NCBI RefSeq assembly: GCF_024700885.2
Contig: NZ_CP117016.1
Direction: 5' to 3' (one strand)
Length of the DNA stretch: 64,000 nt
DNA from: Escherichia coli
GTDB taxonomy: Bacteria; Pseudomonadota; Gammaproteobacteria; Enterobacterales; Enterobacteriaceae
The notes beneath the pieces were generated by a model. It saw only the letters and a list, made by a program, of their open reading frames with translations. It was not told the DNA's origin and did no database searches. Numbering within the stretch: position 1 is the stretch's first letter; each line of letters opens with the position of its first letter. Made by a program: the position numbers and the translations under genes. Shown piece by piece: positions 10,601-12,231 of the stretch.

Positions 10601-10843
10601 CGCCAGACATTCGGCGGTATCGCGGGTCATGAGATCATTTTGCGATTGTGAAACGTTAGAAAGGCGCGGAGTTTCGTGATACAGCGCCAGACAAATGGCG
10701 TCCAGCAGGGTGGTTTTCCCCGCACCGGTTGGGCCGGTAATGGCAAACAGCCCGTTGCTGGCGAACGGCTCGCGGGTGAAATCAATCTTCCATTCGCCTT
10801 TTAATGAGTTCAGGTTTTTCAGGCGCAGGCTGAGAATTTTCAT
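7700..10843 (-). CDS. sbcC: SbcCD nuclease ATPase subunit SbcC
   Basis: About 1047 aa, N-terminal Walker A (GPTGAGKTT), long Q-rich coiled coil with CPLCG zinc hook, C-terminal LSGGE signature. Confidence 0.95.
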
Positions 10844-12042
10844 GCTTCGTGTTCTCCTGCGAGGGTATGCAATGTCGTGGCGAAAAGATGCTGCAGACGT
10901 TGCTGCTGCGATTCATCCAGTTCTTCCAGTGCCAGACGGCGATTGAACACCTCTTCGACGCTGAGTTCGCTGAGGGTTTCACGCTGTTGGCTGGCTAACA
11001 CTCGCTCGCGCTGTTCACGACTCCGGCGTACCAGCAATACTTCGACAGGTAATGATTCGGTTAATGCCTGGATTTTGCGCTGAATATCATGCAGATACTC
11101 ATCAGTAGTGATTTCGATATCCAGCCAGACAGGTGGCTCCTGTGATACATCGCGCCACTGTTCCAGCTGTTCGGTAATCGACGCCAGATCGCCTTTCAGC
11201 ACCGCCATGGGTTGCGTTACCGGTACGTTCAGGTTTTCCACGCTCTCTAATTTGCCGTTTGAAAATGTCACTAGATGGACATATTTACTCTTACCGCATT
11301 CATCAAAACTCAGTGGAATGGGGGAACCGCAATAGCGAACATGTTCCATGCCGCCAATAATCTGTGCGCGGTGAATATGCCCGAGCGCGATGTAGTCGGC
11401 TGGTGGAAAGTTTTGTGCCGGAAACGCGTCCAGCGTGCCAATATAGATGTCACGCACGGCGTCACTTTTACTGGCACCCACGGTCGTTAAGTGTCCCGTG
11501 GCGATGATGGGCAGAGGCTGATCGCCGCGCAGTTTGCAGGCATCGGCATAGTGTTGTTGGTAATAATCGGTAATAGCTGCCAGCAAATGCTGCTGTTTTT
11601 CAATACTGTTAAGCCCCGCCTGGCTGGTAATAATGTCACGCGGACGTAAAAACGGAATAGGGCACAGCACTGCGCCTGGCGTCCCGTCGCGACGAGGCAA
11701 GATTTGCGGCGCATGTCCGGCGCTGGCGACCACGGTCGTATTGAGGAACGCCATGATATCGCGCGATTCATTCAGCGTGGCGACCGAGTCATGGTTTCCT
11801 GCCAGTACCACCAGATGACAGCCAGTTTGCTGTAAATTGACAACAAAACGGTTGTATAACGTGCGGGCGTAACTGGGGGGCGAGCCGGTATCGAAAACAT
11901 CACCGGCAACAATAATCGCATCCACCTGATGGGTTTGTGCTGTCTCCAGCAGCCAGTCAAGAAAAGCCTGATGTTCAGCTTCGCGGCTTTTACTGTAGAA
12001 GTTCTGGCCGAGATGCCAGTCTGAGGTGTGAAGGATGCGCAT
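10840..12042 (-). CDS. sbcD: SbcCD nuclease subunit SbcD (Mre11-like phosphoesterase)
   Basis: [13 protein letters not shown] metallophosphatase motif; 4-nt overlap with sbcC. Confidence 0.95.
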
Positions 12043-12150
12043 AACGGTTCCCTGGCGAAAAAGCATGGGCGCGATTATACCCAAACAGATGTGCCATTTG
12101 CTTTTTTCTGCGCCACGGAAATCAATAACCTGAAGATATGTGCGACGAGC

Positions 12151-12177
12151 TTTTCATAAATCTGTCATAAATCTGAC
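12151..12177 (+). promoter_or_regulatory. Pho box (PhoB binding site) in phoB promoter
   Basis: TTTTCATAAATCTGTCATAAATCTGAC, tandem CTGTCAT-like repeats about 55 bp upstream of phoB. Confidence 0.7.
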
Positions 12178-12231
12178 GCATAATGACGTCGCATTAATGA
12201 TCGCAACCTATTTATTACAACAGGGCAAATC

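Follow-up and report, generated by a model that had tools for sequence, protein, structure and literature searches.

The 27-mer TTTTCATAAATCTGTCATAAATCTGAC, at positions 12151-12177 on the plus strand of the window (the 64-kb stretch of E. coli DNA analysed here), is almost certainly the PhoB operator of the E. coli phoBR promoter, made up of an activating Pho box and the start of a weak antisense repression site. A sequence-only reading had pointed to this segment as tandem CTGTCAT-type repeats lying where the PhoB autoregulatory site is expected, and the letters it quoted match the window exactly. Our own evidence for the assignment consists of the sequence, its position, chance statistics and conservation across species, and among the sequence, conservation and published data compared, nothing spoke against a Pho box. 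Two details of the earlier reading nevertheless had to be amended. The 27-bp span had been treated as one Pho box; its first 18-22 bp are indeed activating, but its last unit, AAATCTGAC, belongs to a repression site. Likewise, autoregulation at phoB was confirmed, but it is dual (activation, then repression) rather than positive alone.

The Pho box is located inside the 189-bp divergent intergenic region between sbcD and phoB, 109 bp from the sbcD start, in A/T-rich DNA (42% GC). The genes and regulatory elements on which the argument rests are the following.

10840-12042, minus strand: sbcD, the divergent neighbour, outside the control of the box (NCBIfam NF008206; annotated start)
12151-12168, plus strand: classical 18-bp Pho box, TTTTCAT-AAAT-CTGTCAT (consensus, matrix, ChIP-seq, EMSA, conservation)
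12151-12172, plus strand: PhoB contact span of 22 bp, two 11-bp units (22-bp definition from PMC4447250)
12174-12188, minus strand: low-affinity PhoB~P auto-repression site, CGTCA-N5-CGTCA (published oligo, half-site scores)
12179-12184, plus strand: phoB promoter -10 hexamer, CATAAT (10 bp 3' of the 18-bp box)
12191, plus strand: putative, approximate phoBR transcription start, placed 7 nt after the -10 hexamer
12232-12921, plus strand: reading frame of phoB, the gene under control of the box, encoding the response regulator (NCBIfam equivalog NF007546 at 540 bits, cut-off 471; RefSeq annotation)
12979-14274, plus strand: reading frame of phoR, encoding the sensor kinase and transcribed together with phoB (NCBIfam equivalog NF008235 at 889.9 bits; annotation)

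The sbcC gene also lies on the minus strand, together with sbcD. The sbcD strand also carries a terminator-like hairpin followed by a T-run (12066-12083, minus strand), close to the sbcD start on its upstream side; with one found against 0.5 expected, it is most likely a chance match. The sbcD-phoB intergenic region is base-for-base the same as that of MG1655, with the window coordinate equal to the MG1655 coordinate minus 404,910, and published coordinates therefore carry over directly. In 501 compared bases there are two differences from MG1655, at 12267 (A vs T) and 12387 (T vs C), both inside phoB, and these two substitutions mark the source strain as a non-K-12 E. coli. A 401-bp probe of the locus occurs in one copy in 5,424 of 5,426 complete E. 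coli genomes, and the 45-mer at 12146-12190 is mismatch-free in 5,407 of 5,415 E. coli genomes where it was matched. The same 401-bp probe is 100% identical to several clinical and animal isolates.

Within the site, the 11-mer TCATAAATCTG is perfectly duplicated in tandem on the plus strand, at 12154-12164 and 12165-12175 (repeat search, family D2, 100% identity, spacing 11), and this duplication gives the repeat its period of one helical turn. Such a period is what one expects of a Pho box, i.e., two 7-bp CTGTCAT-type direct repeats with a 4-bp A/T-rich spacer, repeating every 11 bp (PMC3465305). The Pho box consensus CTGTCATAWAWCTGTCAY, given in the same form, CTGTCAT-A(AT)A(TA)-CTGT(CA)A(CT), by Yang et al. 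2012 (PMC3465305), fits with two mismatches at each of two positions 11 bp apart, 12151-12168 and 12162-12179. No other position in the 64-kb window matches it with three or fewer mismatches, and dinucleotide-preserving shuffles put the chance expectation at 0.17 for up to three mismatches and at 0.00 for up to two. Comparison with the consensus had been suggested as a way to check the sequence-only reading, and the match at 12151-12168 upholds it. As a second measure, 57 PhoB ChIP-seq sites of Fitzgerald et al. 2023 (PMC10294691) were turned into a weight matrix, with the two phoB sites left out. On this leave-one-out matrix, positions 12152-12169 score 21.2 bits, which ranks first among about 128,000 window positions and exceeds both the best of 20 shuffled windows (17.05 bits) and 56 of the 57 training sites. 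Taken together, the consensus matches and the matrix rank indicate that the repeats are real, lie at 12151-12177 and go far beyond chance.

The 18-bp box, two 7-bp direct repeats around a 4-bp A/T spacer, is the high-affinity PhoB~P activation site and occupies about -40 to -23, in place of a -35 element. Every defining feature of a Pho box that can be tested on sequence is found at 12151-12168, and published work documents the binding and the regulation. The box runs to 12168 and CATAAT begins at 12179, an orientation and spacing that suit the phoB -10. Makino is said to have described, in 1986, a 10-bp distance between box and -10 for the Pho box family. Gao & Stock described a CATGAT mutant as being "at the -10 region" (PMC6194859), which implies that the wild-type -10 is CATAAT. 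Pho boxes overlap the -35 region of their promoters (PMC2695467), and a strict spacing of the PhoB site to the promoter is required (PMC10294691). A sigma-70 promoter scan detected no canonical -35/-10 pair within 11900-12400; a missing consensus pair is expected of an activator-dependent promoter, and the scan itself places no promoter. In the 22-bp definition, each 11-bp unit consists of a TGTCA-type major-groove tract and an A/T minor-groove tract (PMC4447250), and at phoB the span takes in a 3' AAAT extension (12169-12172); the upstream half-site of the phoB box reads TTTCA, not TGTCA.

For binding, activation and repression we draw on the cited papers. The PhoB ChIP-seq peak is centred at MG1655 position 417093, which is window position 12183, with a score of 11 and with the motif TTTCATAAATCTGTCATA at 12152-12169 (PMC10294691). 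By EMSA, PhoB~P bound a phoB promoter fragment with a KD of 0.25 uM (Gao & Stock 2018, PMC6194859), and that fragment matches the window exactly. The off-rate of PhoB is lower at phoB than at phoA, and Gao & Stock 2015 attributed the affinity of phoB above that of phoA to the A/T-rich 4-bp extension of the 22-bp span (PMC4447250). A phoB promoter-luciferase fusion was active in a PhoB-dependent way (Yang et al. 2012, PMC3465305). The ChIP-seq peak, the EMSA fragment and an oligo used to study repression all coincide with the segment singled out as the PhoB autoregulatory site of phoB. Footprinting data mapping the site elsewhere had been named as grounds for abandoning that assignment; the published ChIP-seq and EMSA data place PhoB here.

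The last unit of the quoted span needs to be read differently from the two before it. Gao & Stock 2018 (PMC6194859) reported that phoB is repressed by PhoB at high levels via a low-affinity site of two antisense half-sites, with a KD of 4.9 uM. Their oligo AATGCGACGTCATTATGCGTCAGATTTAT (AATGCGA-CGTCA-TTATG-CGTCA-GATTTAT) corresponds letter for letter to the reverse complement of 12167-12195, which puts the antisense CGTCA half-sites at 12184-12188 and 12174-12178, 5 bp apart and straddling the -10 hexamer. The third unit, CTGAC at 12173-12177, thus overlaps the antisense half at 12174-12178, and the site extends past the quoted span to 12188. Mutating both antisense halves (rp2) led to loss of binding and repression, and improving one of them (rp-hi) led to stronger repression (PMC6194859). 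According to PMC6194859, Makino et al. 1988 had already observed, at high PhoB, a protected region upstream of the -10. Among the three promoters tested there (phoB, phoA and phnC), PhoB-dependent repression at high PhoB was seen for phoB only (PMC6194859), and a similar decrease was reported for ugpB in the 2015 study (PMC4447250).

To compare the two possible orientations of the third unit, a 7-nt half-site matrix was pooled from 114 known half-sites, with the following scores.

12174-12180, plus strand: third unit read on the same strand and in phase, TGACGCA; -0.83 bits, top 6.4% of window 7-mers
12172-12178, minus strand: third unit read antisense, CGTCAGA; 3.24 bits, top 1.4% of window 7-mers
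12182-12188, minus strand: second antisense half, CGTCATT; 5.54 bits, top 0.4% of window 7-mers

The same-strand TGACGCA has a G at a position that is always A in the 114 known half-sites. Half-site scoring therefore favours the third unit as a poor same-strand half-site that forms part of the published antisense repression site, and the 27-mer as an activating site of 22 bp joined to the first 5 bp of an opposite-strand repressing site.

The scores bear directly on another reading, in which CTGACGC (12173-12179) is a true third same-strand PhoB half-site, bound by three in-phase protomers or by overlapping dimers (12151-12172 and 12162-12183), with repression exerted through this extension toward the -10. 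We regard this as quite unlikely. The consensus is matched again one 11-bp step downstream with two mismatches, as described above, and the overlapping site was first reported by Gao & Stock's own FIMO scan (PMC6194859); the negative same-strand score and the G at the invariant A, set against 3.24 bits for the antisense reading, argue the other way. The full-site matrix does give 13.2 bits to 12163-12180, rank 5 in the window, but the score comes almost wholly from the shared TGTCATA half and is lower than the maximum that shuffled windows reach on average (14.2 bits), and we rejected 12163-12180 as a second same-strand full site. Comparison between species lends the same-strand reading two further points: the C/G polymorphism at 12173 is that seen at the equivalent 12162 of the second unit, and the conserved half is the one adjoining the box, its antisense partner being variable. 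In contrast, an oligo without the upstream box half binds PhoB~P, and binding is lost with both antisense halves mutated (PMC6194859), although we would like to note that the published mutations hit the same bases of 12174-12178 on the plus-strand and minus-strand readings alike.

For a cross-species footprint, 120 phoB loci, one per species (66 Enterobacterales-type and 54 Vibrionales), were retrieved with a degenerate DNA pattern encoding the N-terminus of PhoB, with the box not being a selection criterion. A Pho-box-like 18-mer was present upstream of phoB in all 120 species, within 220 nt of the phoB start codon in 119 of them and 344 nt upstream in Serratia grimesii, and a NATAAT or CATACT hexamer followed the box at the same 10-bp spacing in every one of the 120 loci. 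The distance from box to phoB start is usually 66-106 nt. Among loci L122, L032, L004 and L034 the box stands farther out: two Photorhabdus species have leaders of 127 nt, Enterobacteriaceae RIT691 has one of 136 nt, and one S. marcescens reaches 209 nt. Like that of S. grimesii, these long leaders appear to carry insertions. In Enterobacter sp. BIGb0383 (L012), a Pho-box-like CCGTCATAAGACGGTCATC is found about 98 nt upstream of phoB, directly 5' of the conserved box, with which it makes four tandem half-sites. Four tandem half-sites are also the arrangement of the double Pho box of pstS.

The loci were aligned by anchoring on the box with a regular expression, which left out three of them: L019 and L075, with slight variants of the box, and L098 (S. 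grimesii), with its distant box. The block 12153-12185 is near-invariant in Enterobacterales, but columns 3-17 of the alignment are partly fixed by the anchoring, and only the columns outside them are independent evidence. In such unconstrained columns, across 61 Enterobacterales, 12169-12185 (AAAWCTGACGCATAATG) is invariant or nearly so, with both flanks below 0.7 bits, and the information content of columns 12169-12172 and 12180-12184 reaches or approaches 2.0 bits. The 3' extension of the box at 12169-12172 (unanchored columns) reads A-A-A-W without exception in the 61 Enterobacterales and A-A-T-T in Vibrionales. The 29 Vibrionales species with enough flank keep the AATT extension and the ATAAT, with the 7 bp between them variable. 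At the -10, Enterobacterales have CATAAT (57 of 65) or CATACT (8 of 65), and Vibrionales have NATAAT. The Vibrionales flank 1-27 nt 5' of the box is A/T-rich and conserved up to 2.0 bits, unlike that of Enterobacterales; an UP element could account for this, or extra Pho boxes like those reported for V. cholerae phoBR.

The two halves of the repression site fared differently in this comparison. Positions 12173-12179 read CTGACGC in 56 of 65 Enterobacterales, GTGACGC in seven and GTGAAGC in two, and are represented by 33 different 7-mers in Vibrionales. The box-proximal half at 12174-12178 is thus TGACG in 63 of 65 Enterobacterales and TGAAG in the other two, whereas the second antisense half at 12184-12188 is TGACG in 15, TGGCG in 24 and something else in 26 of the same 65; both are variable in Vibrionales. 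What is mildly new here is that the box-proximal repression half is fixed in Enterobacterales and its partner half variable, and that both are missing at this position in Vibrionales. Judging from these sequences, the two-half-site repression geometry may fail to hold across Enterobacterales. One could go further and suppose that, with TGACGC at 12174-12179 essentially fixed in about 65 Enterobacterales and the partner half E. coli-like in about a quarter, the auto-repression element is older and built differently than published. Most of the order would then repress phoBR via a single conserved half-site cooperating with the activating dimer (e.g., a third protomer reaching the -10), or via a different factor, with the Vibrionales sites lying elsewhere. 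We consider this unlikely.

It is improbable, by comparison, that the TGACGC beside the -10, invariant in Enterobacterales, has been kept for a reason unrelated to PhoB, i.e., as a spacer, as a core-promoter contact for polymerase, or as the site of another regulator. The 65 species do share it though they do not share its antisense partner half, and RpoS-dependent inhibition of phoB transcription has been reported (PMC6194859). Nevertheless, mutation of TGACGC together with the partner half relieves PhoB-dependent repression (PMC6194859), and Vibrionales, with the same box-to--10 geometry and 33 different 7-mers in between, indicate that the promoter architecture is independent of TGACGC. An extended -10 was tried as the cause of the conservation and rejected, because the TG lies at about -17/-16, not at -15/-14. 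Selection on the core promoter is suggested by the GC-rich segment that directly follows the -10 in most Enterobacterales, CATAATGGCGCC (E. coli has CATAATGACGTCGC, window 12185-12192). This segment may act as a discriminator that is selected in its own right, which would complicate the reading of a PhoB half-site there.

The published expression data also speak to which gene the box serves. The box could in principle act on the divergent sbcDC operon, instead of or besides phoB, given the shared 189-bp divergent region, the 109 bp to the sbcD start, and a ChIP-seq table that names the peak sbcD/phoB (PMC10294691). In RNA-seq of a phoB deletion, however, sbcD RNA is unchanged (274 vs 271) and phoB-locus RNA falls about 1,000-fold, from 32,731 to 34 (PMC10294691), and the orientation and spacing of the box fit the phoB -10, making a role at sbcDC very improbable. 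A chance A/T-rich tandem repeat without function can be practically dismissed: intergenic DNA at 42% GC is a permissive setting and slippage does yield short tandem duplications, but 0.00 matches are expected at up to two mismatches, the matrix score is the top one in 64 kb, the box recurs in 120 of 120 species amid diverged flanks, and binding and regulation have been found by direct experiment (PMC10294691, PMC6194859).

Two other PhoB-like sequences were noted near the operator. Inside phoB, ATTCACAGCACTGTCATA (12334-12351, minus strand) scores 16.1 bits, the second-best Pho-box score of the window, and an intragenic PhoB ChIP-seq peak at MG1655 position 417245 coincides with it (Fitzgerald 2023, PMC10294691). 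Read in reverse complement, its TGTCATA half corresponds to the codons TAT-GAC-AG (Tyr-Asp-Ser) of a conserved peptide, and from its sequence the motif may be largely a by-product of coding. Most intragenic PhoB sites are considered transcriptionally inert (PMC10294691). In the phoB 5' leader, just upstream of the ribosome-binding region, there is a lone but strong PhoB half-site, TGTAATA (12213-12219, minus strand; 9.0 bits, top 0.01% of 7-mers), which makes inverted repeats of 10-11 nt with the units of the Pho box. No conservation of this half-site across species was detected in the box-anchored alignment (columns 59-69), and it is therefore probably fortuitous.

The closest known system is the phoB Pho box of E. 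coli K-12 itself (Makino et al. 1986/1988; Gao & Stock 2015, 2018; Fitzgerald et al. 2023), which is the same element: the EMSA fragment, the repression oligo and the ChIP-seq motif all match exactly, and the regulatory region shows no difference. The Pho boxes of pstS (TGTCATAAAACTGTCATA) and phoA (TGTCATAAAGTTGTCACG) share the motif and, like that of phoB, stand in for a -35 and take a head-to-tail PhoB~P dimer. They differ in their upstream half, which is TGTCA in pstS and phoA and TTTCA in phoB, and the phoB box differs from that of phoA in its A/T 3' extension, which goes with higher affinity (PMC4447250). Per PMC6194859, which cites Diniz et al. 2011, the phoBR genes of V. cholerae have multiple Pho boxes and are likewise autoregulated, through one strong box that activates and weak sites that repress, with the repression sites, as that account has it, at other positions than those of E. 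coli. The Vibrionales phoB promoters sampled here have GGTCACAAAAGTGTCATAAT at an E. coli-like distance from an ATAAT -10, and their variability at the E. coli repression half agrees with V. cholerae repression sites lying elsewhere, as PMC6194859 describes them. The glnALG operon of E. coli (NtrC), as cited in the same paper, follows the same logic of a high-affinity activating and a low-affinity repressing site for an autoregulated response regulator. It differs from phoB in regulator family, sigma factor and site geometry, and the likeness is therefore one of circuit, not of site family.

The published mechanism is the best-supported account of this dual operator; the +1 and the protein-DNA contacts at the phoB promoter are what we infer. 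Under phosphate limitation, PhoR phosphorylates PhoB, and a PhoB~P dimer binds head-to-tail on the pair of 11-bp units at 12151-12172, where it would read TTTCA and TGTCA in successive major grooves, with the A/T tracts lying in the minor groove. The box, standing in for the missing -35 at 10 bp 5' of CATAAT, allows PhoB to recruit sigma-70 RNA polymerase, and this recruitment results in positive autoregulation of phoBR. Once abundant, PhoB~P also fills the roughly 20-fold weaker antisense site at 12174-12188 over the -10, which blocks polymerase and caps phoBR expression, coupling negative to positive feedback. The two together permit a fast response without overshoot (PMC6194859).

The phoB Pho box is already known as a classical example of its family, and the sequence described here is identical to the K-12 site. 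Confirming it adds no new biology, the site being a node of a well-studied autoregulatory circuit. What the exercise does show is that a regulatory site was correctly recognised from raw sequence, with one detail corrected, namely that the span of 27 bp joins two PhoB sites of opposite function, an activating one and a repressing one. The footprint that sets Enterobacterales apart from Vibrionales could, in turn, guide tests of how widespread coupled PhoBR feedback is.
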